A stretch of DNA of 64,000 nt from an uncultured Chloroflexia bacterium (GCA_963811305.1 CAWEQU010000008.1:166587-230586); one strand, 5' to 3'; numbered from the stretch's first letter, positions 19,484 to 51,017 are shown. Program-made: numbers and translations. Notes: a model not told the origin generated them from the letters alone.

Positions 19484-20386
19484 ATGCAGAAGCTAATCGA
19501 ATGCGTGCCTAACTTTAGCGAGGGGCGCAGGCAAGAAGTAATAGACCAGGTAGCCGGGGCGGTCAAAGGGGTCGAGGGGGTAAGGCTGCTCGACGTTTCG
19601 CCCAACCCCGACCACAATCGTACCGTGCTGACCTTCGTCGGACCTCCTGACGCAGTGGCCGAGGCAGCTTTCGCCGCCACCGCCGAGGCCGTCAAGCTGA
19701 TAGACATGGAGAAGCATAAGGGAGAGCACCCGCGCATGGGTGCTATGGACGTGGTGCCTTTTATCCCCATCTCCGGCATGACGATGCAAGAGGCGGTGGA
19801 GATGGCGAACCAGGTAGGGCAGCGGATAGCAGAGGAGCTAGGAGTGCCTGTCTACCTCTACAGCGCTGCTGCTACCACTCCCGCCCGAAAGAAGCTTCCA
19901 GACGTGCGCCAGGGCCAGTACGAGGGCCTCAAGGAGAGCATCTCGATGCCTGAGCGCAAGCCCGACTATGGAGAGCCGAAGATGCACCCCACCGCAGGCG
20001 CAACCGCAGTAGGAGCGCGCCCGCCCCTTATCGCCTTCAACGTCAACCTGGGAACAACTAATTTACAGATAGCGAAGGACATAGCAAAGGGCTTGCGGGA
20101 GAGCAGCGGCGGCCTGGTGAACGTACAGGCGATGGGAGTTGACCTCGCCGCGGAAGGGCTGTCGCAGGTCTCGATGAACCTGCTTGATTACACCAAGACC
20201 CCTATCCACCGCGCCTACGAGCTTGTGCGCGTGGAAGCCGAGCGTTACGGCGTGCCGGTCGTCGGCAGCGAGATAGTGGGCCTCGTGCCACTGGATGCCC
20301 TGGTCGGCCTGGTAGATTTCTACCTGCGCCTGAAGGGATTCAACCGCAGCCAGGTGCTTGAAGCGAGGTTGCTGGAAGAAGAGTGA
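19484..20386 (+). CDS. ftcD: Glutamate formiminotransferase
   Basis: LIECVPNFSEGR, DHNRTV, HPRMGAMDVVPF, QVSMNL. Confidence 0.93.
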   Translation: MQKLIECVPNFSEGRRQEVIDQVAGAVKGVEGVRLLDVSPNPDHNRTVLTFVGPPDAVAEAAFAATAEAVKLIDMEKHKGEHPRMGAMDVVPFIPISGMTMQEAVEMANQVGQRIAEELGVPVYLYSAAATTPARKKLPDVRQGQYEGLKESISMPERKPDYGEPKMHPTAGATAVGARPPLIAFNVNLGTTNLQIAKDIAKGLRESSGGLVNVQAMGVDLAAEGLSQVSMNLLDYTKTPIHRAYELVRVEAERYGVPVVGSEIVGLVPLDALVGLVDFYLRLKGFNRSQVLEARLLEEE

Positions 20387-20464
20387 GACCTCGTGGGGCA
20401 ATCCCCTTTTTCTTTGCTTGGTTAGAATTGCTCCTTTGATCTCCTTTGATGTAGAATGTAGTCC

Positions 20465-20719
20465 ATGATGAGCGCCAATGCACTGGAAATCTACAAACAA
20501 TATATCAAGTCGCTCCCGCCTGCCGAGCGGTTGCGCCTCCTGGCTCTCATGGCGCGTGACCTGGCCTCTGAGACGTCTCAGGTCGGGCACGGTGCGGACA
20601 GGAGCATAATGGAGCTACACGGTCTGGGCAAGTATATCTGGGAAGGCGTAGATGCTGGGGACTATGTGAGCGGGCTGCGAGCCGAATGGTCTGATGACCG
20701 CCCTGCCAATGAAGCTTGA
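20465..20719 (+). CDS. Putative antitoxin
   Basis: LPPAERLRLL..RSIMELHGLGKYIWEGVDA.DYVSGLRAEW, typical of PIN-associated antitoxins. Confidence 0.65.
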   Translation: MMSANALEIYKQYIKSLPPAERLRLLALMARDLASETSQVGHGADRSIMELHGLGKYIWEGVDAGDYVSGLRAEWSDDRPANEA

Positions 20720-35280: not shown

Positions 35281-36549
35281 GTGAAACAACTTGGCACAGC
35301 ATTGGTCGTATTTGGAGCGCTTTTGGTATCGCTGGCCGCTGGAACTGCGCTCGCACAGCCGCAGCCCGCAGTCTCAATCGCTGTAGACCTCGACCCCAAC
35401 AGCGCGGCAGGCATCCGCATCGAAGGACTCGTGACCGACAGTACGGGCCGCCTGTACACCTCGGACCTCGACTTGCGCCGCCTCTTCCGCATCACCCCAA
35501 GCACGGGCACAACAGAGACCCTGGGGATATTACCCCGAACCGCAACCGGCATGGCATTCGATGCTACAGGCAACCTCTACATGGCCAGCGGCGACGTAAT
35601 CCTGCGCATCGGTAGCGCAGCCCTTGGGGGCAGCCAGATCGCCGCGAGTGACGTGCTAACCTTCGCCACGGGTGTAACGGGCGCGAATGGCCTCGCCTTT
35701 GGTCCCGGTGCGGGGCAACTGTACGTTTCGGGCGGGGCCACGGGGAACATTTATATTGTGGCGAGCGACGGTGTGACCAGCACGCTTGTAAGCGGCCTGA
35801 AGTCTGAGCGGCAGGACCAGCAGATCAGCACCAATGGCCTGGCGTTCGGTCCCGACCAGAAGCTCTATTCATCGAACACAGGCACAGGAGCGATAGACCG
35901 CATCACGCTCAAATCCGACGGCACGATGGATAGCATGGAGCGCTTTGTTACCAATCCACTACTGCTCGGTGCCGATGGCATAACGTTTGCCTCGAACGGC
36001 GACCTGTACGTAGCCGCCAACGAGCGCAACGCTATAGTTCGCGTCACCCAGAGTGGGGAGGTAAGCGACGTAGCGAGCAACGACAACGCGGGGCCGCTTG
36101 AGTTCCCAGCAAGCCCGGCCTTCTCCGGCACGTCCTTATACGCCAGCAATTTCGATATAGCCAGGGGCGCAAATGCACCTAACACCCCGGGCATAGGGGC
36201 TTCGATAGCGAAGATAGATGTAGGGATATCGGGCGTGCCTTTGCCTGTAGTCTTCGCCACACCAGGCCCGGCCACAGCTGTTGCCCCGACAGTGGGAAGC
36301 TCGCCTGCTGTACCGACACCACCGGCTTCCCCTACCACCGCCGGTCCAACGCCTACAGAGGAAGTGGTTGTACCGCCTTCCGAGCCGACATCCACAGTCG
36401 AGGTTATCGAGTCAACACCGGTCCCACCAACAACCCCAGGCATGCCCAGCACGGGCGATCCGGGCGCACTAGCTTTCTTGCTGTTGCTGGTCGCTGGGGC
36501 GCTGTCTCTGCTGACGGGCGTAATGCTCCTGCGCAAGCGAGAATACTAA
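35281..36549 (+). CDS. SMP-30/gluconolactonase beta-propeller with sortase-type anchor
   Basis: Signal peptide; NGLAFGP/DGITF repeats; Pro/Thr linker, MPSTG + TM + RKR. Confidence 0.85.
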   Translation: MKQLGTALVVFGALLVSLAAGTALAQPQPAVSIAVDLDPNSAAGIRIEGLVTDSTGRLYTSDLDLRRLFRITPSTGTTETLGILPRTATGMAFDATGNLYMASGDVILRIGSAALGGSQIAASDVLTFATGVTGANGLAFGPGAGQLYVSGGATGNIYIVASDGVTSTLVSGLKSERQDQQISTNGLAFGPDQKLYSSNTGTGAIDRITLKSDGTMDSMERFVTNPLLLGADGITFASNGDLYVAANERNAIVRVTQSGEVSDVASNDNAGPLEFPASPAFSGTSLYASNFDIARGANAPNTPGIGASIAKIDVGISGVPLPVVFATPGPATAVAPTVGSSPAVPTPPASPTTAGPTPTEEVVVPPSEPTSTVEVIESTPVPPTTPGMPSTGDPGALAFLLLLVAGALSLLTGVMLLRKREY

Positions 36550-36569
36550 AATAGGCTTGCGAGAAGAAT

Positions 36570-36607
36570 AAGAAAAGGAGGTGGCGCAAAACCACCTCCT
36601 TTTCTTA
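36570..36607. terminator. Bidirectional intrinsic terminator
   Basis: AAGAAAAGGAGGTGG-loop-CCACCTCCTTTTCTT. Confidence 0.8.
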
Positions 36608-36653
36608 TGAGTCATCAATTATGAAAAAGAGAAAGGGATTGCCCAGCGATGAC

Positions 36654-37271
36654 CTACTTGCCCTTCGATGATGTCAGCAGCTTGAGGGCTATCGCGCCAC
36701 CGATGACTACAACACCGACGGGGACAAGCTTAGGCATCAAGCCCGATATGGTAACAGGGCCTGGAGGTTCGGGGACCAGGGCACGCTCCTCTGGCGTGGT
36801 TGCATGGCGGCGCGCCAGTTCCAACTCCAGGCTTTCTCTCCCCATTTCCATCGCCCACCTGTGGTTCGCACTGAAGATTGGCTTCATGATAGGCGACATG
36901 AGGCGCAAGAGGGGCTTATCTGCCCGAATCTTCCAGTCATAAGTGACGTTTACCCAGGGCCCATCCTGCTCATACGTCCAGATGCCCCGGCCATTGAAGT
37001 CACCTTCTGCTTGTAGCGAGCTACCATAGGGGTACTTTGATTCGGTGACGCGGAAGTTCCAGCGCAGCGTATAAGGGAGCCAGCCCTTCGTATAAAGAGC
37101 GTATTCACTGCCAACGCCATGCTCATCTCCCGATTTCAGCTTCTTGACGTCAAGATAGACCGAAGGCCACCAGCGCACCAGGGCGTCTACATCTCCGATT
37201 ACGTCAGCAACCTCTTGCACTGTGCCCTTGACTCGCCACTGAGTTATGAAATGATAATCGTTGCTCGGCAT
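36654..37271 (-). CDS. SRPBCC/polyketide cyclase family protein
   Basis: WWPSVYL, KGWLPYTLRW, GDFNGRGIW, FSANHRWAM. Confidence 0.85.
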   Translation of the reverse strand: MPSNDYHFITQWRVKGTVQEVADVIGDVDALVRWWPSVYLDVKKLKSGDEHGVGSEYALYTKGWLPYTLRWNFRVTESKYPYGSSLQAEGDFNGRGIWTYEQDGPWVNVTYDWKIRADKPLLRLMSPIMKPIFSANHRWAMEMGRESLELELARRHATTPEERALVPEPPGPVTISGLMPKLVPVGVVVIGGAIALKLLTSSKGK

Positions 37272-37321
37272 AGTATCCCTCCATTATTAGAGATTATTGT
37301 AGCACAAATACTCACGTGGGA

Positions 37322-37405
37322 AGGGATTGCCTTATGATATTCTACTCTCATATAACCTGGCTAAAGAATTATCAGCATGGTACCGTTTCACTTATGGTTA
37401 GGAAG
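37322..37405 (-). pseudogene. Degenerate copy of the 5S rRNA 3' two-thirds
   Basis: GGGATTGCC..CTACTCTC.TATA.CC..ATCAGC..GTACCGTTTCACTT..GGTT aligns with 41372-41455. Confidence 0.75.
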
Positions 37406-37454
37406 AATTAGATTCCAATTCTGACATTATGTGCAAAACTATGATATCTATATA

Positions 37455-37483
37455 TTGACAATGTCAGAAGAGTGAGATATACT
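37455..37483 (+). promoter_or_regulatory. Sigma70 promoter with overlapping operator-like repeats
   Basis: TTGACA-17-TATACT; TTCTGACATT (37419) / AATGTCAGAA (37460) inverted repeat. Confidence 0.65.
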
Positions 37484-37513
37484 CAGAACAAGGATCAAAT
37501 GTAGGAGACTCTT

Positions 37514-38155
37514 ATGCCCGATTATGACAAAGCACATAAACTACTTGCTGGCCCGTATCAAAAGATATACAAAGAGATGTGTTCTGGTATTTCACCTGAA
37601 AAAGTAGGAGATGATCTTCTTAGGGCTATAGTTGAGAGTCTCAAATATTTTGGTGATACTTCACTCCAGATAGTATTGAGCGTAGCCGAGTGTCTTAAGC
37701 AAAGCGTACAGGGTCCTCTATTGGACAGTTCTCTCGACTATGATAAGATGAGCGACTCAATTGTTGCACTTTTACAAAATGCTAGCAACTCAGACGTGAG
37801 TAAGCGAGGTCTTGGTATAGCTGAACGCATATGCAAGAGGCAACTAGAGGAGCTTCGACATGGTATCTACACACTCGACATCACATTTCAAATGGTCAGG
37901 AATTATGCTGGTGAGATATATGATTCTTCCTTCAAGGAATTGGCACCAAGGAAGTTACACCATTACAATGACATAAGCCACAATACCTTTAGAGAACGAT
38001 TAGACGAAGTTTCCTACCTTGTCCAACCAGGTATAGATGACATCGCCAGACAAGCGATACGCAAAGGGAGCGTACACTCACTCCAAAAGCCTGCCCATAC
38101 AAAGAGTGTACAGCACTACAATCTTGACGATGATGTGTGCGCTATCACTGGATAA
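37514..38155 (+). CDS. Hypothetical protein, first gene of the QueC-like operon
   Basis: 213 aa ORF with AGGAG RBS, AT-rich. Confidence 0.7.
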   Translation: MPDYDKAHKLLAGPYQKIYKEMCSGISPEKVGDDLLRAIVESLKYFGDTSLQIVLSVAECLKQSVQGPLLDSSLDYDKMSDSIVALLQNASNSDVSKRGLGIAERICKRQLEELRHGIYTLDITFQMVRNYAGEIYDSSFKELAPRKLHHYNDISHNTFRERLDEVSYLVQPGIDDIARQAIRKGSVHSLQKPAHTKSVQHYNLDDDVCAITG

Positions 38156-38163
38156 GAGAAGCT

Positions 38164-39602
38164 ATGATCGAGCCTGATTATACCTACGAATTCTCGGATA
38201 TAAGCGAAAGGCAGTCGCGTGTGAAGGTAACCATTCATCGCAATGGTGAAAAGCGAACCTTCACAATCCAGGTGGATGACGAAGATCTCGCACGTTGTAG
38301 AAGGCGTGATGTATCACAGAAGCTTGCAGATTTGATAGATATAGCTGTAGCTGTGCACGCCGTGGATCGCATGTCGAAGAGGGAACCAGATATACGATGT
38401 AACATCAAAATCAATCTACCCGTGCGGCATCCTGAAGTGTTTAATAATCCGGACATACTCAAACGTTTAGAAGGTATTCTTTTTTGGTACACTGAAGACA
38501 ATTGGTCATTCCAATTTCACCGGAGGCATAATTGTAGGCGATTTGCGGAATGGCAGTCAAATTTCTCTACTGATGCTGGTGAAGTTGGCGAAGCCAGTGA
38601 AGTTGCCCTCTGGAGCGGTGGACTGGAACTCGCTGGCTGGTCTATATAATAGATGGTTGGAGAAGTCAGCTTCACGTTTCACCCTTTTTGGAACAGGTGG
38701 GAACAATATTGTCCATGAGCTACAAAAGGAGATTGCATTAGGAGTCTGCGAATAGTCTATCGGCATCTGTAAACCTTGTACGCGTACCTATTCATCTCAT
38801 TCATAAGACCTTCAAACGTAGAGAGCTAAATCGCATCTCGCGCTCTCGTGGTTTTGTATTCTTGCTTACTGGCGCAGTGTGCGCTCTGCTTGAGGATAGC
38901 AACGAGTTATTCATCTATGAGAACGGCATTGGGGCCATCAACCTCAACTTCGGAGCACCTGAAGTGGGTCTGGACCATTCACGGTCTGTCCATCCCACCT
39001 CACTTATCCTGATGAGCGATTTTGTTAGCGACAATTGGAGTTCCCTTCGCATTTCGCAATCCCTTTATCTTTAGGACAAAGGGTCAATTATGTAGGATTT
39101 TCGCCACATTGCCTAAATCACAACAGAATTCTATATTGCAGCTAATTGCCAACACTGTGAGTTGTGATCGCTGTCAGCGTAAGCCTAAACAGAGAGTACA
39201 GTGCGGGGTTTGCTCCTCTTGTCTATTGCGAAGGCAAGCTCTATTGGCCGCAGGGCTTGAGGATAGAACTGATTACTTATATGCATCGGCAAACTCCGAC
39301 GATAGTCACTTACCACATATGCTGCTTCAACTCGAGAGACTAGCCGCTTGTGTAAACAGTGATGAAGCGTGGCGAGACTTAGCTATCGCTTTTCCAGAGA
39401 CATTACCCGAGGCGGCACTTCGAATGGCAAGATTTCAGGAGATTTAACCAAGAGCACATACAGGAACTCGCTCATTAACCTCTACAAGCAATATATCAGA
39501 GAATGGGATAAGGTCGGACCCATGTTATTGCCAAACTTAGCTCTGTCTAAGGCTTCACAAGCTATTCATGCTACACATACCTCAGGACAGAAAGTCCACT
39601 AG
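38164..39602 (+). CDS. QueC-like (7-cyano-7-deazaguanine synthase family, QatC-like) protein, several frameshifts
   Basis: DLIDIAVAVHAVDR, LWSGGL(D)SLAG, ENGIGAIN, HSRSVHP, NPFIFRTKG, SCD..QCGVCSSCLLRR. Confidence 0.8.
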
Positions 39603-39613
39603 AGAGGCATATC

Positions 39614-40828
39614 GTGGATAAGAGCATTTTGGACACAATTGATGCCAAAACATTAGGCACGGAGCTTCAGGAAGCACGCAAGAAGCGTGGCCTAACCCAA
39701 GAAGCCGTGGCTCAGCTTCTCGATATTGCTCGCACGACCTTGACAGCTATAGAGAAAGGAGAGCGCCGCATCAAACCTGGGGAGCTTATTAAACTCGCCC
39801 AGGTATATGGTAAGCAGGTAAGCGACTTCGTGCGACCGCGACCTCAGATTGAGCCTTTCTCACTACAGTTTAGAGGCCCTGCATATAGGACTGAAGAGAC
39901 CGAACTAAAGATCGCGCCCTGCATTGCCGAGTTCGAGGAACTTTGCAGGGATTATCTTGAGCTTGAACAGATTACTGAGACACCACTAGTACGTAGATAC
40001 CCAACTGAATATGAAATCTCTGGACTACCAATTGACCAAGCGGCAGAAAGCGTAGCAACTCAGGAACGCAATCGTCTCGATTTAGGCGATGGAGCTATTC
40101 CAACAATGCCAGTACTACGTGACGTGTTAGAGCAAGAGGTTGGTCTAAGGATCTTCTTCTTGGATCTGCCTCATCCCTTTTCAGCTATGTATCATTTTGA
40201 CCAGCAGCTAGGAGGTTGTATAGCTATTAATCGCGCACACCCTGAGGAGCGCCGCCGCCTGTCCCTCGTACATGATTATGGTCATTTTCTAGTACATCGC
40301 TATAAGCCAGAAAATCTAATAGAAGACCAATACCAACGCAAGCCAGAAAGCGAGCTTTTCGCTGATACATTTGCACGACATTTCTTGATGCCTACTAGTG
40401 GACTGACAAGGCGTTTCAACGACATAAAGCGCACAAAAGAGAAAGTTACCATCTTGGATTTGTGTAAATTAGCGCACTACTATGGAGTCTCAGTACAAGC
40501 TCTCATCCTTTGGTTAGAAGAGATAAGGTTACTGCGCGTAGGAACCTGGGACATATTGAGAGATCGTGGGTTCAAGGTTCGTGAAACACAGCAGCAATTA
40601 GGACTTGATCCTCTCCCAGAGCAAGCTAACAAAGTACCAAGACGCTATCAGTATTTGGCCCTGGTTGCCCTTGAAAGAGGATTAATTTCCGAGGGGCAAT
40701 TTGCCCACTTCCTGCGTTTGGATCGGTTACAAGCGCGTAGTGAGGCTAATAAGCTCCGGCAAGAAACAGTTGGGGAGTTAGATAGTGCTGTCATAGACTC
40801 TGATCTGACGCAGCCCATCACTGCATAG
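39614..40828 (+). CDS. XRE HTH + ImmA/IrrE metallopeptidase-like protein
   Basis: GLTQEAVAQLLDIARTTLTAIEKGER; RRRLSLVHDYGH; E.FAD.FA..FLMP; YGVS. Confidence 0.9.
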   Translation: MDKSILDTIDAKTLGTELQEARKKRGLTQEAVAQLLDIARTTLTAIEKGERRIKPGELIKLAQVYGKQVSDFVRPRPQIEPFSLQFRGPAYRTEETELKIAPCIAEFEELCRDYLELEQITETPLVRRYPTEYEISGLPIDQAAESVATQERNRLDLGDGAIPTMPVLRDVLEQEVGLRIFFLDLPHPFSAMYHFDQQLGGCIAINRAHPEERRRLSLVHDYGHFLVHRYKPENLIEDQYQRKPESELFADTFARHFLMPTSGLTRRFNDIKRTKEKVTILDLCKLAHYYGVSVQALILWLEEIRLLRVGTWDILRDRGFKVRETQQQLGLDPLPEQANKVPRRYQYLALVALERGLISEGQFAHFLRLDRLQARSEANKLRQETVGELDSAVIDSDLTQPITA

Positions 40829-40839
40829 GAGTCTATTGA

Positions 40840-41364
40840 TTGAGTACCGTTATTGGCGGAGTTCATGAGGCTATCATATTAGATGCCTGTTGCATCATAA
40901 CCTTATATCAGACGCAAAGAATGGAGGATATCCTAAGAACTCTGCCAAAACCTTTAATGGTTGCGGAATACGTACAAGTTCAAGAAATCCTTCAGTTCAG
41001 TTTACAAGCTCTCATAGGGGCGGGTTTGCTGACAATTACAGCGCCAGAATCGGAAGCCGAAGAAAATACGTTCGTAAACCTCGCCTATTATCTTGATGAT
41101 GGGGAAGCTATGACGGGTAGCTTGGCTATTCACCGAAATTGGGCTATTGCAACAGATGACAGAAAGGCTATAGCTCTATTCCAGCGATTGGTGCCCCATG
41201 TGCAACTTGTGTCTACGCTGGAAATCATAAGATACTGGGCAGAAGCGACCATCGCCAAACATGAAGAAATCCGAACTGCCTTGCAGAATATGCGTATGGG
41301 TACGCCTTATGCGCCGAAGGCTAATCATCCGTTTTACCTATGGTGGCAGAAGTATATAGGTTAA
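40840..41364 (+). CDS. PIN-domain protein
   Basis: IILDAC, LDDGEA, IATDDRKA. Confidence 0.8.
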   Translation: MSTVIGGVHEAIILDACCIITLYQTQRMEDILRTLPKPLMVAEYVQVQEILQFSLQALIGAGLLTITAPESEAEENTFVNLAYYLDDGEAMTGSLAIHRNWAIATDDRKAIALFQRLVPHVQLVSTLEIIRYWAEATIAKHEEIRTALQNMRMGTPYAPKANHPFYLWWQKYIG

Positions 41365-41378
41365 AGAAAAAGGGATTG

Positions 41379-41495
41379 CCCCGCGATGGCCTACTCTCCC
41401 ATAGCCTTGCGGCTATAGTACCATCAGCGCTGTACCGTTTCACTTCCAGGTTCGGGATGGGGCTGGGTGGGTCCGGTACGCTCAAATCACGGAAC
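41379..41495 (-). rRNA. rrf: 5S rRNA
   Basis: CCCATCCCGAAC..GAAGTGAAAC..GCTGATGGTACT..GGGAGAGTAGG consensus on the minus strand. Confidence 0.95.
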
Positions 41496-41890
41496 AAATC
41501 CCTTTTTTCTAACTAGAGAATAATTGCAACGAGGAATGGGAACTCATTTGAGAAACCACAATTACGCTTGCGATATTGTGCCTTACTTTCGCTTCCCAGC
41601 CTCGTGCTTTACGCATTACGTATCTTTCGATACGCACCACGCAAATATGCAGAGGAGGGGAGTAAAGTAGGGGAACAAGCCCTCGACCATGAGAGTCTGC
41701 TTAGCTCGCCTGTTACCAGGCATACACTCGCGACCTCGCAACCCGGTAGTCTTCCGGGGGTCTTACCTGTTCGAGACAGTGAGAAGGCTCATCTGGAGGA
41801 GGGTTTCCCGCTTAGATGCTTTCAGCGGTTCTCCCTTCCCAACATAGCTACCCAGCAATGCTTCGTCAACAGCTGGCACACCAGAGGTTG

Positions 41891-41921
<31 letters not shown>

Positions 41922-41946
41922 CCCCTCGCAACCTTCTAACGCCCAC

Positions 41947-41999
<53 letters not shown>

Positions 42000-42000
42000 T

Positions 42001-42033
<33 letters not shown>

Positions 42034-42754
42034 CTACCTTCCATCATTACTGATGGGGTAAGACTATACCTTCACCATAGCCCACATCTGTGAGCCTTAG
42101 GCGCGGACCGTATGATAGGCAGCGTAATTTGCTTCTAGCGCGTGTTGCCTATCTCACCTTACATAACAAGTAAGGATCAGTCGTTACGGGAGACATCTTC
42201 CTGGACCATAATCGCAAAGTTCTTGCGCCGGTTTTTGGACCGGACATTGAACGATGATAATGTGTCCGCTAACTGAGCTATTTCGCACAGGTCTTCTTTG
42301 GTGACCACTTCTTGCTGTAGGATTTGGCGAGCGATTTCCGCCTGCCGCCTCTTTCCGCGCAAGTAGGGTGTGATTAAGTCGAGCACTCGGAGAACATCTG
42401 CCTGGTTGCGTACAAGCCAGTCGAAGCACGTCCTGTTGGGACATACCGCGCCCGCGCCTGTGGCATCTACCAGCCATTCTACGTCTTGCTTCGCATACTG
42501 AGTCCCTTTTGAGGGCGACCCGCACACGAAAGCCGAAACGTTTCTCGGCGTGCCTTTCAATCAGGGCCATAATAGCCCCATCACCATCTATAAGACCTGC
42601 GATATACGCTCTGTCAACTTCGGAAGCTGTCTTTCCCACGGAATTGCCCTTTGCGCTTACTCTCGAATTTACGATGAGTATAGCACAGGTAGGGTTTCTC
42701 CGTTTTGGGTCCGATTATTACCTCACGATTTCTCGTGGGGAGAGCAGAAAATCT
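42034..42754 (-). mobile_element. Group I intron in the 23S rRNA
   Basis: Exons rejoin as GGAGU|AGGUCCCAAGG; P1 GGAGUAGA/UCUGCUCU with U.G; R CCCGUAACGACUG, S AAGGUAUAGUC; ends in G. Confidence 0.92.
42177..42639 (-). CDS. Single-motif LAGLIDADG homing endonuclease, frameshift near 42510
   Basis: AYIAGLIDGDGAI; LDLITPYLRGKRRQA; stop overlaps the R element. Confidence 0.9.
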
Positions 42755-42830
42755 ACTCCAGCCCCAGGATACGACGAGCCGACATCGAGGTGCCAAACCA
42801 TGCCGTCGATATGAACTCTTGGGCAAGATC

Positions 42831-42863
<33 letters not shown>

Positions 42864-43195
42864 AAGCTACGGCCCTTCCACTCGGTACCGTAGGATCACT
42901 AACTCCGTCTTTCGACCCTGCTCGGCTTGTAGGCCTCGCAGTCAAGCATCCTTGTGCGTTTGCACTCACCGCCGGATTGCCATCCCGGCTGAGGATACCT
43001 TTGAACGCCTCCGTTACTCTTTGGGAGGCGACCGCCCCAGTCAAACTACCCACCAGCCACTGTTCCCTTTCGGGGTTAGGGCCGGTGCACATCAAAAGTG
43101 GTATTTCACCGTTGGCTCCACCGCCCCCGCAAGGGCAGCTTCAAAGCCTCCCACCTATCCTACGTATGATGTGCCCGAACTCAATGGCAAGTTGT

Positions 43196-43228
<33 letters not shown>

Positions 43229-43300
43229 TGGGTAACCCGTATCTTCACGGGTCTTTCAATTTCGCCGGGCCCCTCGTCGAGACAGCGCTCAGATCGTTAT

Positions 43301-43353
<53 letters not shown>

Positions 43354-44091
43354 AGTTATAGTTACTGCCGCCGTTTACTGGGGCTTCAGTTCAGAGCTTG
43401 CACCCCTCCCTTTAACCTTCCAGCACTGGGCAGGCATCAGCCCCTATACATACACTTCCGTGTTTGCAGAGACCTGAGGTTTTGTTAACCAGTCGCCTGA
43501 GCCAATTCTCTGCGACCCTCTACTCGCTTCCACCGCGAGGGTGTACACGTTCAAGGGCTCCCCTTCTCCCGAAGTTACGGGGACATTTTGCCGAGTTCCT
43601 TAACGAGGGATCACCCGATCACCTTGGTATTCTCTACCTGCCTACCTGTGTCGGTTTGCGGTACGGTCACTCCATCTCTGGCTAGAGGATTTTCTTGGCA
43701 GCACGGCCTCAATCTCGTTGTCCTTCCCCGAGGGGAAAAACTTCCATTCGGCTCTCAGTTTATAACGGCGGGACGGATTTGCCTACCCCACCTACCTACC
43801 ACCTTAGAAGAGCTTATAGCTCTCGAGACCTAGCCCCCTGCGTCCCCCCATTGCTCGTAACGATTAGGAGTGGTACAGGAATATAAACCTGTTGTCCATC
43901 GGCTTCCCCCTTCGGGTACGCCTTAGGCCCGACTGACCCGAGGAGGATAAACCTTGCCTCGGAACCCTTAGGCTTACGGTGTGCGTGATTTTCACACGCA
44001 ATGCGCTACTCATGCCGGCATTCTCTCTTCCGTTATCTCCACGCCTCTTTACAGTGACGCTTCACAGACCTCCGGAACGCTCTCCTACCCC

Positions 44092-44191
44092 CCCTACGAA
44101 TTGTAAATCTCAGATTGCAAATTTTAGAATTGCCGACTACCCCTAAGGGTAATCTACAATCTGCAATATGCAATCTAAAATTGCGTAGGGA
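44092..44191 (-). other. Expanded helix 45 / intervening sequence in the 23S
   Basis: CCCTACG..CGTAGGG stem enclosing about 85 nt of AT-rich heptamer-like hairpin between conserved CTCTCCTACC and GCCATAGCTTCGG. Confidence 0.75.
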
Positions 44192-44262
44192 GCCATAGCT
44201 TCGGTACTAGACTTGATCCCCGGTGAATTGTCGGCGCCCTCTCACATTCGACCAGTGAGCTG

Positions 44263-44311
<49 letters not shown>

Positions 44312-45895
44312 CTATGCGAGTGGACTTCCTTTACAACTTAGCCTAGATTTTGGGACCTTAGCTGATGGTCTGGGCTGTTTCCCTTTTGACGATGAATCTT
44401 AGCACCCACCGTCTCACTGCCATCTATAGATATTGGTATTCGGAGTTTGATTCGGTTTGGTAAGCTAACGCCCCCTAGCCAATTCAGTGCTCTACCCCCA
44501 ATATCCTTTACGATGACGCTGCACCTAGATGCATTTCGGAGAGAACCAGCTATCTCTGTGTTCGATTGGCATTTCACCCCTACTCACAGCTCATCACCCA
44601 CTTTTGCACTAGTGGTGTGTTCGGGCCTCCACGCACGGTTAGGTGCGCTTCACCCTGGCCATAAGTAGCTCACACAGTTTCGGGTCTACCCCCCGCCACA
44701 ATTGCCCTTTCGGACTCGCTTTCGCTGTGGCTCCGCCTATCACCGGCTTAACCTGGCGACAGAGGGTAACTCGCCGGCCCGTTCTACAAAAAGTACGCCA
44801 TCACACATCCAACACCACGAGGGTGTCGTATAGTGCTTTGACTGGTTGTAGGCAGTATGGTTTCAGGATCTATTTCATTCCCCTCACGGGGAGCTTTTCA
44901 CCTTTCCCTCACGGTACTAGTTCGCTATCGGTCACTAGGGTATTTAGCCTTGGGTCGTGGTCACCCAGATTCCCACCGGGTTCTTCGTGCCCGGTGGTAC
45001 TTAAGTACAACACGCACAGTCTCGTACATTTCGGTTATGGGGCTATCACCCTCTACGGCCGGCCTTTCCAGGCGCGCTCACCTATATACGAGATTTTTTA
45101 CTGCTTAGGGCTGCTACCGCGCCCCTAGTGTGACTTTCAACACCCAATACACAACGCCGGTAGGCTATCACGTGTATTAGGTTTAGGCTTCTCCCGGTTC
45201 GTTCGCCACTACTACGGGAATTGTTTCTTTTCCTCGGGGTACTTAGATGTTTCAGTTCCCCCGCTTGCCCCCACATAAATGTGGTCCTACCCATCACGGT
45301 AGGGGGTTGCCCCATTCGGAGATCTCCGGATCGGTCTGTAAGCGACTCCCCGGAGCTTATCGCAGCGTAACCACGTCCTTCTTCGGCCCTAGTTGCCAAG
45401 GCATCCACCATACGCCCTTATTCGCTTGTTTTTCCCACTCAACTCCCCACCTCTGCACACATACGTGTGGTTCGGCGGTTAGCTCAGTCGGCAAAACTCG
45501 CAGCGCATTTTTTCGGGTTTCTCTTTTCCCTTTCAACTTTCATTTGCATGAAAGCTGATTTCGAAATTGAATTCCCAATTTTTTCGTTGCAAGTATTCTC
45601 ATGTTAAGGTGCCTGCTCTTCGCAGCTTGTGCCTTGCGGCTTTGCTGTTGGAGCAGCCTGCCGGTCTGTTGACCGCCAGTCGCCGTCCCTATCAAGGGAC
45701 GAGGAGCGGAGGTCGGCTCCCGTACTTGTTTGATTTAGAAGGTGCGATGGGCAACAAAAGAGGCTTGGGCACTCGCCTCAAGCCTTGGTGGCTGTTGAGT
45801 ATGCGAGCTAGCTTATCCGGTTGTTGTCCTGTTGATCTGCATTCTTTGGTCTTTTCGCCTGGGCTGCTTTTGTTCCAGCCCGACATGCAGAGATA

Positions 45896-45924
45896 ATTAT
45901 ACGAAACCTCTTTTGCTTTGTCAA
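45896..45924 (-). promoter_or_regulatory. rRNA promoter P2
   Basis: TTGACA-17-TATAAT perfect consensus. Confidence 0.85.
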
Positions 45925-46021
45925 GGCGATTTGGCGCTTTTTGGGAGCAATTTCGCTTTTTTCTTTGTTTGCGACCCTTCTAATGACTTTTCCAGAGGCC
46001 GCTTTTCGGGGCACAAGGATT

Positions 46022-46049
46022 ATTATACGGGTTGGGAGCGGGGATGTCA
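46022..46049 (-). promoter_or_regulatory. rRNA promoter P1
   Basis: TTGACA-16-TATAAT. Confidence 0.8.
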
Positions 46050-46091
46050 AGGAAAATGTAAATGATGAGACATGATCAATATCCCGCAATC

Positions 46092-46913
46092 TTACTGTCC
46101 ATCATCAAGTGTAGGGACATCACTGTTGCGATGAAGCACTGGAAATCCAGGCAGTCCAACTTTGATGGCGAAGTCATAACCAATATCTCTTACCACAAAG
46201 ATCGTATGAAAGGCTCTTGCTGGAGCATACCCATCAAGGCAGTCGTACCATGTGTGAGGTTGGTCACGGCAATACTGCTCATCGAGTAGCAGAATACGTG
46301 GCAAGCTCACGTCCTTGAGTTTATTGGCTTTTATCTCGATGGTCTTCTTCAGAAGTTCACATAACGATATGCCACTCGTTAGGCTCGTGGAACTGGCACA
46401 GGAGATGCCATCTACATCGTTGCCGTTCTTAAGAATGGTACAGATTTGAACACCATTATAGGATATTACTTCTTCTAATGCCCTGTAGTCGCTTTGCGTT
46501 CGTGTGACGTATGCGATTACCTGCTGCACAACCGTTCTTCGAAGGTTGGGCGATTCCGAGAGTTGCGGTAGCGGCTCCGAGAAACACATAACGTATATGC
46601 CCCGCAATATCCCCTTTGAGTGACATGCCTTTTCCGCTTTTTGGGTCAAATAATGCAGCCCAGACCAAATCTCCCCAAGAGGCAACTCTTTACCTTCTAC
46701 TACTCTATGATGCATGACGCAAGTAACCTCAACTGCGAACTGCTTTCCATCCAGATTAAGGTCATAATCAGGGGCGGTTTCCGGTCCGTTTGGCTCTTTC
46801 TCCCAAGACATATGCGAATGCTGTATGTAGGTTCGTAACCATCTTTCGAAGCGCTCACGGCAGCGCTCTTCAGATATGGTTTTGTTGGGGAATTGTACGT
46901 TGGGCTTTGTCAT
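46092..46913 (-). CDS. Hypothetical protein, possible PD-(D/E)xK nuclease fold
   Basis: PDYDL..FAVEVT motif, 273 aa. Confidence 0.55.
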   Translation of the reverse strand: MTKPNVQFPNKTISEERCRERFERWLRTYIQHSHMSWEKEPNGPETAPDYDLNLDGKQFAVEVTCVMHHRVVEGKELPLGEIWSGLHYLTQKAEKACHSKGILRGIYVMCFSEPLPQLSESPNLRRTVVQQVIAYVTRTQSDYRALEEVISYNGVQICTILKNGNDVDGISCASSTSLTSGISLCELLKKTIEIKANKLKDVSLPRILLLDEQYCRDQPHTWYDCLDGYAPARAFHTIFVVRDIGYDFAIKVGLPGFPVLHRNSDVPTLDDGQ

Positions 46914-46921
46914 GAGGAGTC

Positions 46922-48125
46922 CTAACTACGGTCTATGGGTTGGTGCTCGGCCAGTACGCCCGGCACGATAGCCATGCCGAACCACGGGCTCTGATTGTCG
47001 GGGTACGCATAGCTAACCGTGAACGTACCAGGACGCGCACCATTCCATACGTCTGGTGGAGGTTCAAGACCAACCCCACCATAAGGCATCGTGCCCGGCG
47101 GGTACATGGTGCTCAGCCACTGGCTGAAATAGATGTCCTCAACCTCGATCACTCCAACTGGTTGCTCTACTGGCCGGTTCAATGCGACTATCTGTGCATC
47201 GACAGGCATAAGAATTCCTGCCCTCTGCACGCGCTTCATCAATGTTCGTGGTGGGCAGGAGATGCACACCTATAGCTCTCATGACTCGGTCAGGCATATA
47301 AGCATCGTTCTCGCACAGTTCGTATTTTCCATTCTCATAAAAGAGGCTCGTCTCATAAAGACACCCTTGCGCTGGACCAATAACACTCGATCCGTGCAGA
47401 CTTTCCCACTGTGCTCTAGTGAGACCTAAGCCTCCCGATGCAAACCCAGGTGCCGACGGCAGGCTTGAACCCTCCACATACTTCGCCCGCAAGCGGAAAG
47501 TGCCCAAGAGTGAAAGCAGCACATCATACGGAGCCGCCTTCTCAGGATGGGCCTCAAAGACGGCTCGCTCGAAATACTGCACCTTGTACACCTTGCCATC
47601 TGTGGCAGAAGTCTCAAGGAACTCATCCGAGATGGGATAGCCTTGCTGTGCCAGGCCGCCGTGAGATTGCCAGTAGCTTAGAAATGTGCCACCGAGCCGC
47701 TTGCCCGTCTGAGGAAATAGCTGCGAGCCGGGTTGCGTGTTAGGCACTTGCTTCGGTGCGCCGTTCGGGTATTTCGCTTTGTACGTGAAAGTGCCAAGAA
47801 GGGAGAGGAGCACATCGTTAGGCGAGCGATACTCAGGGTGCATCTCAAAGACGGCGCGCTCAAAGTATTGGACTGTGTAAATCTTGCCATCCGTATCCGA
47901 CATTTCGCTGAACGGCTCGCTGATTGGGTAGCCCTGCTGTGCAAGCGCACCGTGCTGCTGCCAGTATTGGAGGAAGCGCCCACAGAGGGTGTGGCCTATC
48001 TGGTCGAACCGTTGGCAATCAGCCTGCGCGCTAGCGTCAGCATGGAACCATCCGTCAGAATGGAAGATTCCTGCTGCTATAAGAATAGCTACAAGTAGCA
48101 AGACACAAAACAGCTTGCGTGTCAT
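46922..48125 (-). CDS. Secreted protein with two Chloroflexi surface repeats, frameshift near 47210
   Basis: Signal peptide; 2x F..YWQ.HG.LAQQGYPIS..VQYFERAVFE.HPE..DVLLSLLG. Confidence 0.8.
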
Positions 48126-48287
48126 GGTATTGCCCTCAAGCCTCTAGTTCACGGCTTTCCCTCTCACCATTATACATCCTCGTAAACACTAAAGGAGATA
48201 GGTAAGAAAAAGAAGGCGAAAGAAAAATCGGGGCTATTTTGCAGTAGGAATGCCTGCTTACAGCGTCCGGCTATGAATAGCAGCCGC

Positions 48288-48584
48288 TCAATCTTCTAAT
48301 AGCTGCTCCAAATCACCATAATCATACGGCGGGCGCTTCCGCACAGCCAGTACATCTATGGCGAGGTCGGCTTCGGCAACTGCATACACTATACGCCAAC
48401 GGTCCAGACGTAGACGGCGCAGTTCGCGATCAATTTCAGGTATATCAAGTTCCTTGCTTTGCGGAGGGCGTGGATCAGTTGCGAAAGCACTTATGGCTTG
48501 TCTAACACGAGACCTTACATGGCCCGGCAAGTCCTTAATTTCGTCCCAAGCGCGCGGAGTAACATAAACTGTATAATGGCTCAC
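48288..48584 (-). CDS. RelE/ParE family toxin
   Basis: DPRPPQSKEL..RRLRLDRWRIVYAV..VRKRPPYDY. Confidence 0.88.
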   Translation of the reverse strand: MSHYTVYVTPRAWDEIKDLPGHVRSRVRQAISAFATDPRPPQSKELDIPEIDRELRRLRLDRWRIVYAVAEADLAIDVLAVRKRPPYDYGDLEQLLED

Positions 48585-48808
48585 CCCAGCTCGCCCTCGA
48601 CATCCTCCCAGCGGCGCCAACCGGCGCGCATACGATCTCCCCCTGACGCCTTTAACTCTGCGTAGGCCTGTTGCGCTAGATGCACATCCTCCACTGTCTC
48701 TAGCCACTCAACGAGTGCTTCCCAATCGTCAGCAGTTATCACAGCTAGCCTCTTGCCTTTAATGGTTACGTACTGCACAGACTGCAATGCTTCCAGCCCT
48801 GTCATCAT
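48581..48808 (-). CDS. Antitoxin for RelE
   Basis: GTGA overlap; VITADDWEALVEWLETVED, WEDVEGEL. Confidence 0.8.
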   Translation of the reverse strand: MMTGLEALQSVQYVTIKGKRLAVITADDWEALVEWLETVEDVHLAQQAYAELKASGGDRMRAGWRRWEDVEGELG

Positions 48809-48983
48809 ATTGCCCTCCAAATGCTAGCTACGAGCCTCCCCCTCACTATTATACATCCGCGCGACCGCTGAAGGAGATAGGTAAGATAAAGAAGGGAAAA
48901 GAAAAATCGGGGCTAGATACCTGCTTACAGCGTCTGGCTATGGATAGAAGTCAACGAATACTCCGCGAGTTCGAGAGGCAGAA

Positions 48984-49403
48984 TCAGGATTTCAACAGAC
49001 GTACAAATCCAGCCTGCTCGAAGTGGTGGTCTGCTGTGAGAGCTTCGGTTATGCCTAGCTCCTGCATAACTATGAAGCTGGAGCAATCTACCAGACTCCA
49101 TTCTTTGTCTGCACGGCTCTTGAGCAGTTGCCAGGCTTGCTGGTCTCGTGCAGGGTCTATATGCGCGATCTCAACGTAGGGTGAAGTTTTCAAATCATCA
49201 ATGAGTCTGATACTGGTTGAGCGAGGAATACGCAGAGGACTGGTCAGAAGGGCTACCAATTCAGCAATAACATAGCTTGTTGTTACCAGTTTACGCTTCT
49301 GCTGCCAGGTAAGCTGGTAGAGATGGGAGGCCAAGTCGTGATAGGGTTCTTTGGGAGCGAAGAGATTCCCCCAGCCACCAGTATCTACAAAGAGATCACC
49401 CAT
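48984..49403 (-). CDS. VapC/PIN toxin
   Basis: LFVDTGGW, YVIAE, SLVDCSSFIVM, TADHHFEQAGF. Confidence 0.92.
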   Translation of the reverse strand: MGDLFVDTGGWGNLFAPKEPYHDLASHLYQLTWQQKRKLVTTSYVIAELVALLTSPLRIPRSTSIRLIDDLKTSPYVEIAHIDPARDQQAWQLLKSRADKEWSLVDCSSFIVMQELGITEALTADHHFEQAGFVRLLKS

Positions 49404-49665
49404 CAGACTTATTTTCCGGCTGGGTATCATGCATAGATGCGTAGATAGCTTCGCCTATGTAGCGGTCGTGCTCATCCGCCCAACCAACAACGCCAGTATC
49501 GAGAGCACCAATCCATTTCGCCAATGGGTCAATTTCGTTACCATGAACTCTATCAGCCAACCATTGCACAGCCAATATTTCAGGGGACTGCCCTTCCTCT
49601 CTCGCTGTTTCCAAGAGAGATTCGTAGACATCTTCAGGCACTTCTAATAGCAGTGTGTGGGCCAT
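49396..49665 (-). CDS. Antitoxin for the PIN toxin
   Basis: LEVPEDVYESL, DPLAKWIG, WADEHDRY; overlaps the toxin start. Confidence 0.8.
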   Translation of the reverse strand: MAHTLLLEVPEDVYESLLETAREEGQSPEILAVQWLADRVHGNEIDPLAKWIGALDTGVVGWADEHDRYIGEAIYASMHDTQPENKSDG

Positions 49666-49923
49666 AACAATAGCCTCCATGATAAAAACCGGGGACCCCT
49701 CATTCAGGGTTAAAGCCTATTTACAGCGTCCGGTGAAGGATAACATTCGATAGACCACCCGATTACTTCTATTGTACTGTACACTGGACAGGTAGTCAAT
49801 TAAATTTTCAGGAAGGCAAAAGAAAAATCGGGGCTACGTTACAGTAGGCATACCTATTTACAGCGTCCGGTGAAGGATAACATTCGATAGGCCTCCTGAT
49901 TCCCTAAATGCCCATTGCAGACA

Positions 49924-50307
49924 TTATTGCGCCGGGGGTTGCCACAACTCGAATTGCGTTCCTTCCGGGTCTACTGCCCAGCCAAAGCGGCCATATTCTG
50001 TGTCTTCCACCTTGTCGTCCACCTGTACCCCGGCGGCACGTAGCTGTAGTAGCATCTCGTCCAGGTCGTCCACGATGTAGTTGACCATATATGGGGCGTT
50101 AGTGGGGTCGAAGTAGTCGGTGTCCTGGGGGAATGGAGACCAGACAGTGAGGTGCTCTTGTTCGGGGTTCTGCGCATCTCTCCACTTGAAACTGACGTAA
50201 TCGTCCGCATCAGGCTCTATGCCCAAATGTTGGTAGTACCAAGCTTGTAGCTTCTTAGGGTCATTGCTCTTGAAGAATACCCCACCTATACCTTTTACTC
50301 GTGCCAT
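49924..50307 (-). CDS. VOC/glyoxalase family protein
   Basis: GIGGVFFK, NYIVDDLD, YGRFGW..DPEGT.FELWQP. Confidence 0.9.
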   Translation of the reverse strand: MARVKGIGGVFFKSNDPKKLQAWYYQHLGIEPDADDYVSFKWRDAQNPEQEHLTVWSPFPQDTDYFDPTNAPYMVNYIVDDLDEMLLQLRAAGVQVDDKVEDTEYGRFGWAVDPEGTQFELWQPPAQ

Positions 50308-50402
50308 TCTGCGCCTCCTGTACGCTTCTCGGACTTTGTTACAGATTCCCTTGTACTACCCTTTCCCGCGTCTTCTTTATTCTTCCTCTTTCCCACCGCC
50401 CC

Positions 50403-50747
50403 CTACATTTCGGTACTGTAGAGGCGACGTACTGAGGCGCGTCTGAAGCGGCCCGCTGATCGGCTTGCCAGCAGCCTGACCTTGGGAATGAGAGTCAGAG
50501 TGACGCCCGTCTGGGGCATGAATTCGGCGTAGAGAATATCGCTGAACCTGATAGCTAACTCCCGTGACTGACCTGTGTCAGGGTCTATACATCTGTAAGA
50601 AGCCCCGCTTAACGCGCCGATGCCGCCATTTACATGGGCCAGAAAGTCACGCTTAAGGGTTTCGCTTTCTGCCAGGTCCAGATCGAAGTGGCGAGTGTGG
50701 TTCCAACCTTTGTCGTCACCAACTTTGAAGGTAATTAGCACTCTCAT
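50403..50747 (-). CDS. Hypothetical protein
   Basis: ORF with GGGGG RBS; no recognisable motif. Confidence 0.5.
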   Translation of the reverse strand: MRVLITFKVGDDKGWNHTRHFDLDLAESETLKRDFLAHVNGGIGALSGASYRCIDPDTGQSRELAIRFSDILYAEFMPQTGVTLTLIPKVRLLASRSAGRFRRASVRRLYSTEM

Positions 50748-50828
50748 ATTCCAGCCCCCTTAAATTCAATAAGTCAGTTCCACAGTATACAAAATAAAAA
50801 GGAGCGAGTATAACACCCTCTCCTGATA

Positions 50829-50862
50829 CGAGGAGACTCGAACTCCTGACTTCTACAATGCA
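50829..50862 (-). pseudogene. tRNA 3'-half remnant (Ala-like), att-like
   Basis: TGCATTGTAGAAGTCAGGAGTTCGAGTCTCCTCG: variable loop + T-arm GTTCGAGTC; no D-arm or CCA. Confidence 0.55.
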
Positions 50863-51017
50863 GTTGCTTGTTAGTGTTGCAAAATGATTAGCGTACACTA
50901 CGCTAGTAGGTCCTCACATATCTTGTGCATTGCTGCCAAAAACGTCACGAGTTCGATCTGATCAGCGATTTCGTTGCGATCACAACCCTATCCTGCTATA
51001 ATTCGCCTGGTAACCCT

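Follow-up and report, generated by a model that had tools for sequence, protein, structure and literature searches.

Layout of the locus

We analyzed a 64,000-nucleotide stretch of DNA (hereafter, the window) from an uncultured Chloroflexia bacterium, G000 (GCA_963811305.1, CAWEQU010000008.1:166587-230586), in which the functional 5S rRNA gene is followed by two inserts of unrelated genes, and on the far side of each insert lies a front-truncated copy of the 5S end on the same strand as the gene itself. The window is G000:C8:166587-230586 of a 520-kb contig (C8), in an assembly of 4.6 Mb and 21 contigs that is 71% complete. The functional 5S gene (41378-41494, minus strand; Rfam RF00001, 85.8 bits, full model) is the last gene of a 23S-5S unit, with the 23S gene upstream at 41671-45431 on the same strand, and the whole assembly, at its 71% completeness, has one 5S match and one 23S match. 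Beyond the mature 5S end is a conserved 3' trailer of the precursor, AATCCCTTTTTCTTTAAC (41360-41377, minus strand), which forms a processing stem with the 5' leader (41496-41513) when 41340-41545 is folded. The trailer is kept in congeners through TTTAAC, and in G000 it overlaps the stop codon TAA (41362-41364) of the neighboring PIN-like gene.

Along the strand of 5S, the order is the 5S gene, the 18-nt trailer, an antisense low-GC cassette (from 41364 to about 37421), a 15-nt spacer, and the first truncated copy (copy 2, 37405-37321). These are followed in the same direction by a promoter-like stretch, a gene of the SRPBCC family (37271-36654), the second truncated copy (copy 3, 36663-36626), and a strong hairpin (36608-36568). 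Beyond the hairpin is the stop codon of a convergent SGL/beta-propeller gene (35281-36549).

Truncated copies of the 5S rRNA gene

Copy 2 (37321-37405, minus strand) was found by local alignment and blastn, and consists of 5S positions 40-117 and 8 nt of the trailer. It lacks the front part of the gene and is enriched in AT. When aligned with 5S positions 40-125, 62 of 86 columns are identical; the differences are substitutions, one 3-nt gap and one 1-nt gap, with nothing larger, and 17 of the 20 substitutions are from G/C to A/T. In a blastn search of the whole genome with 5S and its flanks (word size 7), copy 2 was matched over 76 nt with 73.7% identity (E 1.8e-7), and none of 500 shuffled sequences reached its score (36, against 8.2 +/- 1.2 for the shuffles). 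Copy 3 (36626-36663, minus strand), found in the same ways, is shorter, with 5S positions 95-117 and 15 nt of the trailer, and it is identical to 5S positions 95-132 at 33 of 38 sites. The corresponding genome-wide match is 38 nt with 86.8% identity (E 6.9e-5; 0 of 500 shuffles). Apart from a weaker copy 4 described below, the next match in the genome has an E-value of 0.07 and is located in another contig, and independent repeat finding returned the same pairs of 5S and copies.

An earlier note on this DNA had described an approximately 85-bp degenerate copy of the 5S end at 37322-37405, and another near 36634 that supplies the stop codon of the SRPBCC gene. Both copies were confirmed as significant in the sensitive genome-wide search, and the stop codon TAG (36654-36656) of the SRPBCC frame, together with its last codons, is in fact within copy 3. 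The definition of the repeat as the 3' end of 5S needs to be widened. The repeat itself is real, and it extends about 8 to 15 nt past the mature 5S end into the conserved precursor trailer, and there is a weaker further copy at 20387-20415.

The copies were not called as 5S in an Rfam search up to an E-value of 10. With a model of 5S positions 34-133 built from 18 sequences of the genus, copy 2 was recovered at 24 bits. Counts given here and below include genomes marked as unpublished, namely G021 (one of 14 5S loci, one row of the alignment and hence of the model, and one of 17 loci in the hairpin scan), G016 (one of 13 FTCD_N flanks) and G022 (one SGL locus), and no conclusion rests on these three. 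Two features of the alignment indicate the origin of the copies. The sequence GGTA at alignment columns 26-29 occurs in the 5S of G000 alone among the 18 aligned 5S sequences and is retained in copy 2, and the trailer sequence CAATCCC, common to copies 2 to 4, occurs in only three of the 18 (G000, its nearest relative by 5S, G001, and G012:C3). Therefore, as judged from these sequence states, the copies are derived from the 5S type of the G000 lineage itself and not from that of a distant donor.

Three other candidate similarities were rejected. Copy 3 seemed to continue into the coding region of SRPBCC, matching 5S positions 72-94 across a 13-nt gap, but 366 of 500 shuffles reached this score, and the extension is not significant. 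An 18-nt inverted match to the trailer within the QatC-like gene of the cassette (39056-39073) has a genome-wide E-value of about 10 and encodes the native residues FRNPFIF, and we treated it as chance. Extra complementarity of copies 3 and 4 to the distal 5S leader was reached by 405 and 116 of 1000 shuffles, respectively, and duplex energies did not discriminate.

The low-GC cassette

The 3.9-kb segment between 5S and copy 2 (37421-41364, plus strand) has a GC content of 0.453, compared with 0.555 for the window, and contains four genes on the plus strand. Gene 1 (37514-38155) encodes an unknown protein of 213 aa without a family in PADLOC or Pfam. Gene 2 (about 38164-39602) is QatC/QueC-like and frameshifted, being split over four reading frames, with four changes of frame in tblastx. 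Gene 3 (39614-40828) encodes a regulator with a helix-turn-helix (HTH) and an M78/IrrE domain, and gene 4 (40840-41364) a PIN-like protein of 174 aa with no Pfam match. Intact cassettes with the same four genes in the same order are present in two congeners (G011:C65 and G015:C113). In tblastx, the regulator and PIN-like genes share 54-73% amino acid identity with these copies, and genes 1 and 2 share less. The boundaries of the cassette are the same in the congener loci L023 and L022. All three cassettes have the promoter/operator-like sequence TATTGACAATGTCA (in the window, 37455-37483, plus strand); the homology begins about 45 nt upstream of it and stops at the stop codon of the PIN-like gene, which is TAA in G000, within the overlap with the trailer, and TAG in both congeners. 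The conserved promoter before gene 1, at 37455-37483 in the window, at 2984-3012 in L023 and at about 8306-8280 in L022, includes a palindromic, operator-like TGACAATGTCA, which is likely to be a binding site of the HTH-M78 regulator of the cassette.

In G011 the cassette is located between a membrane-protein gene and an aminotransferase gene, and in G015 it is beside an insertion sequence and an integrase fragment. Neither locus has a 5S-like flank or flanking direct repeats, and we thus discarded long target duplications as a property of the cassette. The cassette is foreign and independently mobile. We also inspected 21 further loci with homologues of the PIN-like gene, from Chloroflexota and Cyanobacteria, and none of them has an RNA gene at the Rfam gathering level within 7 kb.

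The intact G011 copy was analyzed with PADLOC, in which gene 2 matched QatC (1.2e-41) and gene 3 matched RmrA (2.4e-20), a likeness to regulators of the RmrA/CapH-CapP type; gene 4 had a weak match to PDC-M69C (E 0.0027) and none in Pfam. However, the Qat defence system needs the ATPase QatA, QatB, QatC and the TatD-like QatD. No QatA, QatB or QatD was found in the G011 copy, its other three proteins had no match to a Qat model, and in the window the one Qat-like gene, QatC, is broken. In contigs of a related strain from metagenome run X1 (see below), insertions and deletions relative to the window at 38627, 38745, 39027, 39445 and 39465 are exactly those that restore one reading frame of the QatC-like gene; thus, the gene seems to be intact there, and is either broken or mis-sequenced in the G000 assembly.

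The SRPBCC gene

The segment between copies 2 and 3 contains a polyketide-cyclase-like gene of the SRPBCC family (36654-37271, minus strand; Pfam PF10604, 4.9e-5, which is below the curated cut-off). A promoter-like site, TGn-TACAAT, was recognized by eye just upstream of it at about 37285-37300. The gene has a GC content of 55.7%, and thus the two inserts differ in composition (45% for the cassette and 56% for the SRPBCC gene). Its best homologues, with 65%, 60%, 52% and 51% identity, are in other families of the order; within the genus, matches were found in seven of 25 congeners, with identities of only 27-37%. Homology at the DNA level ends at 36757, and at the protein level at about residue 197-201 of 205. 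Among 48 metagenome loci with an SRPBCC homologue (291 kb in total), none has a 5S-like sequence at E <= 0.1.

Termination of transcription

The hairpin at 36568-36608 has a perfect stem of 17-18 bp and is a bidirectional intrinsic terminator, common to the strand of the rRNA genes and SRPBCC and to the convergent SGL gene. Its folding energies on the two strands are -29.5 and -29.4 kcal/mol (z -7.2 and -7.1). In the 46 nt after the real 5S, the energy is -6.0 kcal/mol (z -0.28), which is no better than that of shuffled sequences, and the best hairpin within 200 nt after this 5S (-15.1 kcal/mol) is inside the PIN-like gene. A simple terminator scan returned no minus-strand site between 41377 and 36450; it misses the hairpin at 36568-36608 because the T run lies inside the stem. 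The statement in the earlier note that no terminator follows the real 5S and a strong one follows the last copy thus agrees with the folding z scores and the scan. Among the relatives, a crude scan detected a hairpin of -19 kcal/mol or below within 200 nt after 5S in 10 of 17 loci, and classic terminators with a hairpin and a T run were recognized by eye after 5S in several of them.

Transcription of the rRNA genes in G000 would therefore meet no nearby terminator, and is likely to run antisense through the cassette and sense through the SRPBCC gene until 36568-36608. The 5S gene is transcribed very strongly, and its terminator now lies beyond the defence cassette and the SRPBCC gene, which raises a physiological question.

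The region downstream of 5S in related genomes

In four congeners (G019, G006, G008 and G003), 5S is still linked to the SGL gene, with different genes between the two: an M29 peptidase gene in G019:C191 and G006, M29 and DoxD-like genes in G008, and a gene for a small unknown protein in G003. In other loci, the first genes after 5S are membrane-protein and PNPOx-like genes (G001), an SRPBCC-like gene followed by endonuclease III (G019:C241), or a VapB-like and PIN pair followed by PNPOx-like genes and endonuclease III (G011:C6). In the genus, therefore, what comes immediately after 5S is hypervariable, while genes farther away recur; the gene content of this region is variable among relatives, not constant. 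An extra copy of the 5S end was found at none of 14 other 5S loci in 13 congeners (flanks of 0.8-10 kb). The DNA 30-80 nt downstream of the 5S gene in G011:C21 belongs to a short repeat family (L055, about 12780-12830; L182, 8258-8410; L183, 5565-5716), which occurs as inverted pairs elsewhere in G011.

Partial 5S sequences elsewhere

A weaker copy in the window, copy 4 (20387-20415, plus strand), contains 5S positions 109-117 and the trailer and directly follows the stop codon of the formiminotransferase (FTCD_N) gene. The whole 36-nt blastn match (20380-20415) has a genome-wide E-value of 0.026. Part of it overlaps the FTCD_N stop codon and is native, since the ending LLEEE-stop is conserved in relatives, and this part was not counted. 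In the 29 nt after the stop codon, 23 of 25 columns are identical to the 5S end and trailer, a score that none of 500 shuffles reached. Copy 4 is absent from the FTCD_N flanks of all 13 relatives inspected, including the closest (95% protein identity). A VapB-like open reading frame (ORF) of 84 aa (20465-20719) starts 50 nt after copy 4. In 40 genomes of the order, eight loci with homologues of this ORF were found, including that of G000, and one of them is about 90 nt after the rRNA-operon (rrn) 5S in G011:C6, where a PIN toxin gene follows. Thus, here too, a 5S end travels together with a gene that, in a congener, comes after 5S.

In a census of the same 40 genomes with the model of positions 34-133, which would miss short copies such as copy 3, extra copies were found only in G000, G011 and G020. 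Contig C81 of G020 has a truncated copy (positions 34-122) identical at 86 of 89 sites to the rrn 5S of G020, and directly after it a second unit (positions 77-133, 55 of 57 identical). Then come 4.7 kb of patchily distributed genes (PpoB2, DUF1326, hydrolase-glycosyltransferase and TetR), and after this block a 5S-like gene of full length (70.7 bits), interrupted at position 37/38 in loop C by a 13-nt insertion, of which the 5' part is 83% and the 3' part 98% identical. These 5S units are at 1486-1660 and 6335-6464 of L050, and neither is preceded by 23S; the right flank resembles the region downstream of 5S in G001. The hydrolase gene of the block was considered as a gene linked to 5S and rejected, as it has no 5S flank in G012. 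Further partial 5S ends away from rRNA operons, each followed by a terminator, are present in G011:C9 and G020:C205. The front boundaries of the partial copies in the genus are scattered (34, 40, 50, 77, 81, 95 and 109). In the G000 and G020 copies, similarity at the 3' side reaches a limit at about 125-133, which is the end of the conserved processing stem.

A short 5S match in G009:C112 is cut by the contig end and was set aside. A class-wide DNA search with the 5S end was also abandoned, because the sequence is too divergent beyond the genus, with three candidates scored per genome. Viral contigs were scanned with 5S motifs, and none has a 5S-like sequence at its end. An exact 19-mer gave two matches, which are not 5S; with the degenerate motif, 19 of 21 loci were scanned, the other two being contigs scanned already. 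One contig from IMG/VR has an internal 5S-like gene (L170, 363-471; 42 bits).

Recombinases and independent DNA of the locus

As the earlier note had stated, no integrase is present: Phage_integrase (PF00589) and Resolvase (PF00239) had no match on the 520-kb contig C8, and Pfam revealed no recombinase among all ORFs of the island. Ku, which could point to capture by end joining, was not found in the assembly (71% complete). Two integrases near 5S in G011 were not used as support; one is beside ParA/ParB without a 5S repeat, and the other has a SAM-like N-terminal domain, which is typical of Xer recombinases.

Two metagenome runs contain relatives with about 90-95% identity, and no run covers most of the stretch (shares of 0.16 and 0.07). 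One contig of run X1 (1080 nt, about 90-94% identity) bridges the 5' part of the SRPBCC gene (36911-37272) and cassette gene 1 (37406-38020); between them, 104 unlike letters replace the 133 nt containing copy 2. Another contig stops matching at 36658, at the junction of SRPBCC and copy 3. The contigs of four runs contained neither an empty-site joint nor a circle joint, although contigs cannot show rare forms and uncovered parts carry no information.

Possible origin of the locus

The end of the rRNA unit is a spot of recurrent gene gain, and a mobile element targeting 5S is not demonstrated. On balance, we lean towards a serial gain of genes that did not require a recombinase and was anchored on homology to 5S, in which each old 5S end was displaced downstream. 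The ancestral layout would have been 5S, its trailer and a terminator facing the convergent SGL gene. DNA with a 5S end and new cargo downstream of it would then have recombined into the resident 5S at least twice, with a homologous anchor each time in the conserved 5S and perhaps in 23S. The other junction might be illegitimate, formed with linear DNA by homology-facilitated illegitimate recombination (HFIR), or a circle with a fragment of 5S might have entered by a single crossover. A working 5S would be left intact, and the former 5S end would be displaced together with the DNA downstream of it and decay as a front-truncated copy. The SRPBCC segment would have arrived first, with copy 3 and the old terminator left beyond it, and the cassette with the QatC-like, HTH-M78 and PIN-like genes second, with copy 2 left before SRPBCC. 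Such a course would need no dedicated recombinase. We infer the sequence of the gains, their anchoring by homology and the enzymology.

If displacement occurred, each truncated copy should be followed by what follows an intact 5S in a congener, and similarity should stop at the end of the trailer. The follower of copy 2, SRPBCC, follows an intact 5S in G019:C241, and that of copy 4, the VapB-like gene, does so in G011:C6; copy 3 is followed by a terminator, as is intact 5S in several congeners. The junctions cut into the ends of ORFs, as the SRPBCC stop codon comes from copy 3 and that of the PIN-like gene overlaps the trailer, and two junctions inside the last codons look like the result of illegitimate joining. 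The reality of the repeats, the two origins of the segments between them, the terminator after the last copy alone and the highly variable slot after 5S are together best read as two or more successive gains. The earlier note had suggested two successive insertions, each of which duplicated the 5S end and displaced the terminator; this holds in outline, on the strength of the repeats, the inserts of two origins and the terminator after the last copy, but an attachment-site mechanism is not supported.

Several observations weigh against serial displacement. The conserved left boundary of the cassette is only 15 nt from the start of copy 2, which would be a coincidence for a random illegitimate join; this proximity better fits a unit that carried its own 5S fragment, either as a circle entering by a single crossover or as an attachment (att) site. 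The divergence from 5S is 28% for copy 2 and 13% for copy 3; that is, the supposedly younger copy is more decayed. Constraint on copy 3 by the stop codon and the trailer, and AT pressure on copy 2 in a promoter region, may be the cause. Copy 4 is 21 kb away, inverted and between housekeeping genes, and the model does not explain its route. In G020:C81 the truncated copy is upstream of the full-length one, an order that the model does not predict. None of the relatives was found to have the site empty or in an intermediate state, and the assembly of G004, the nearest relative by protein identity, lacks the region. Furthermore, the junction between the PIN-like gene and 5S is bridged by no contig of the four runs. 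No donor DNA for the displacement was identified.

One rival explanation is site-specific integration, in which the 3' part of 5S and the trailer are an att site, a tyrosine or serine recombinase has been lost or operates from another place in the genome, two elements are inserted in tandem, and the copies are of the attR type. The architecture is like that at tRNA genes, with a direct repeat of the 3' part of the gene beyond each insert, and on either side of the cassette, sequence derived from 5S begins within 0-15 nt. Three of the breaks in the genus are near loop C, at 34 (5S_a of G020), at the 37/38 insertion (5S_b of G020) and at 40 (G000). In the copies of G000 and G020, similarity breaks off sharply on the 3' side at about 125-133, and the VapB-like gene is beside a 5S end in two of eight loci. 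However, contig C8 has no recombinase gene, the cassettes of the two congeners are at unrelated sites without 5S flanks or repeats, and the homologue loci are not near 5S (0 of 21 for PIN-like, with any RNA gene counted, and 0 of 48 for SRPBCC). The other front boundaries are scattered (50, 77, 81, 95 and 109), junctions fall inside ORF ends, the viral contigs matched by 5S motifs include one internal 5S-like gene and none at a contig end, and our literature search yielded no account of attachment at a 5S gene. We therefore do not uphold the idea that 5S serves as an attachment site for cassettes in the sense of tRNA or transfer-messenger RNA (tmRNA) genes, and consider site-specific integration improbable. 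The same low degree of belief applies to its extended form, in which the 3' two-thirds of 5S and the trailer would be a true recombination site in the genus, where cassettes of defence, toxin-antitoxin and SRPBCC genes are inserted, stacked and occasionally moved with the repeat, as in an integron-like array with the recombinase acting in trans.

A somewhat better candidate, although in our view still an unlikely one, is that the remnants came first: slippage or unequal exchange would have made local duplicates of the 5S end at this heavily transcribed locus, and unrelated cargo would have entered between the copies later. The tandem 5S ends of G020:C81 (34-131, then 77-133) have nothing between them, partial ends with terminators exist away from rRNA operons in G011:C9 and G020:C205, and 5S remnants after a normal 5S are described for Peptococcaceae and Pseudoalteromonas in a passage of PMC7812874. 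However, each of the remnants in that passage is preceded by a terminator and has large internal insertions, neither of which is seen in G000, and both inserts in G000 are exactly at copy boundaries, which would be a double coincidence if the events were independent. Chance resemblance, or a chimeric join of the assembly at rRNA genes, is very improbable. The assembly is incomplete (71%), the GC content of the cassette is unlike that of its flanks, and the unbridged junction of the PIN-like gene and 5S is what a false join would leave, but E-values and shuffles exclude chance for copies 2 and 3. In addition, 5S and its copies have no identical run longer than 14 nt (counted by eye), and runs this short would not mislead an assembler; SRPBCC and the cassette are joined in an independent contig, and the conserved trailer continues uninterrupted into the junction. 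We give slightly less credence still to retroposition, by which front-truncated cDNA copies of the 3' end of the 5S precursor would have been inserted. It could account for a constant 3' end with variable front truncation and for the dispersal of some copies (copy 4, G011:C9 and G020:C205), but copies 2 and 3 are in order, co-oriented and exactly at the cargo boundaries beside the source gene, and the copies run into former downstream DNA instead of ending at the RNA end. No reverse transcriptase was seen, though no search was made for one. Since the integrase model fails these tests and the remnants-first explanation needs a double coincidence, gain anchored on 5S homology is the explanation that we favor.

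Other features near the rRNA genes

The rRNA genes of G000 are split. The nearest 16S gene (G000:C8:240107-241658) shares the strand of the 23S-5S pair and is 28 kb upstream of it; another 16S gene is in a different contig (G000:C6:361616-363166), and the assembly contains neither a second 23S nor a second 5S. The match to 23S covers 3761 nt compared with 2925 positions of the model, indicating about 830 nt of insertions inside 23S. An ORF within 23S (42184-42639) has a LAGLIDADG-like motif recognized by eye and no Pfam match. The DNA upstream of 23S (45500-51000) is low in GC (0.44-0.51) and contains toxin genes of the ParE and PIN families and ORFs without a family; accessory genes are thus present on both sides of the 23S-5S pair.

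Comparison with known systems

If serial displacement is correct, the end of an rRNA unit would be a landing pad that needs no recombinase, for which the most conserved DNA of the genome supplies the homology. The old 5S ends would be scars recording the order of gains, so that the history of insertion could be read in uncultured bacteria, and the idea of gene-end displacement, until now one about toxin loci, would also cover rRNA genes. Involvement of a recombinase would instead place 5S beside tRNA, tmRNA and ffs among the targets of attachment.

Genomic islands at the 3' ends of tRNA, tmRNA and small-RNA genes, with ffs as an example, are treated in a passage of PMC12540744. The locus in G000 resembles them, as far as that passage goes, in the direct repeat of the 3' part of an RNA gene at the far end, in foreign composition and in tandem arrangement. 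However, it has no integrase, its cargo is not found at the same target elsewhere, the repeat boundaries vary, and the junctions are in ORF ends. It also differs from an integron, which has an IntI integrase with attI and promoterless cassettes that each end in attC, as no integrase is on contig C8, the cassette and SRPBCC have their own promoter-like sites, and the repeats are derived from 5S. In SAR11, hypervariable region 2 (HVR2) is located between 23S and 5S, and rRNA genes were proposed as sites of homologous recombination that spread its variants (PMC2217521). Both are variable regions associated with flanking rRNA genes, but HVR2 is about tenfold larger and lies between 23S and 5S, whereas the slot in G000 is downstream of 5S and is marked by truncated copies.

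Sequential displacement of gene ends is known from the orphan modules of Rhs and contact-dependent inhibition (CDI) loci. In effector-immunity arrays of Vibrio cholerae's type VI secretion system (T6SS), a passage of PMC5361080 attributes such displacement to HFIR, a process defined in part of PMC3240628. The features given in these passages have counterparts in G000, namely a conserved upstream anchor, new cargo beside it, front-truncated relics followed by former cargo, and no recombinase. The differences are that the anchor here is an rRNA gene, that the cargo consists of unrelated genes and not of toxin tips and immunity genes, and that the mechanism in G000 is a proposed one.

The nearest precedent for the copies themselves is again in PMC7812874, a passage of which describes 5S remnants with a terminal part missing, at the operon end after a normal 5S, sometimes several of them, and regards them as pseudogenes. 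Copies 2 and 3 are likewise terminally truncated, downstream of 5S and more than one. In that passage, each remnant is preceded by a terminator and has large internal insertions, and it describes no cargo genes between remnants. In contrast, the copies in G000 bracket a defence cassette and an SRPBCC gene, and a terminator follows only the last of them. Remnants of 5S after rRNA operons are thus already known, and the locus in G000 is a modest variant that combines such remnants with the displacement of gene ends.

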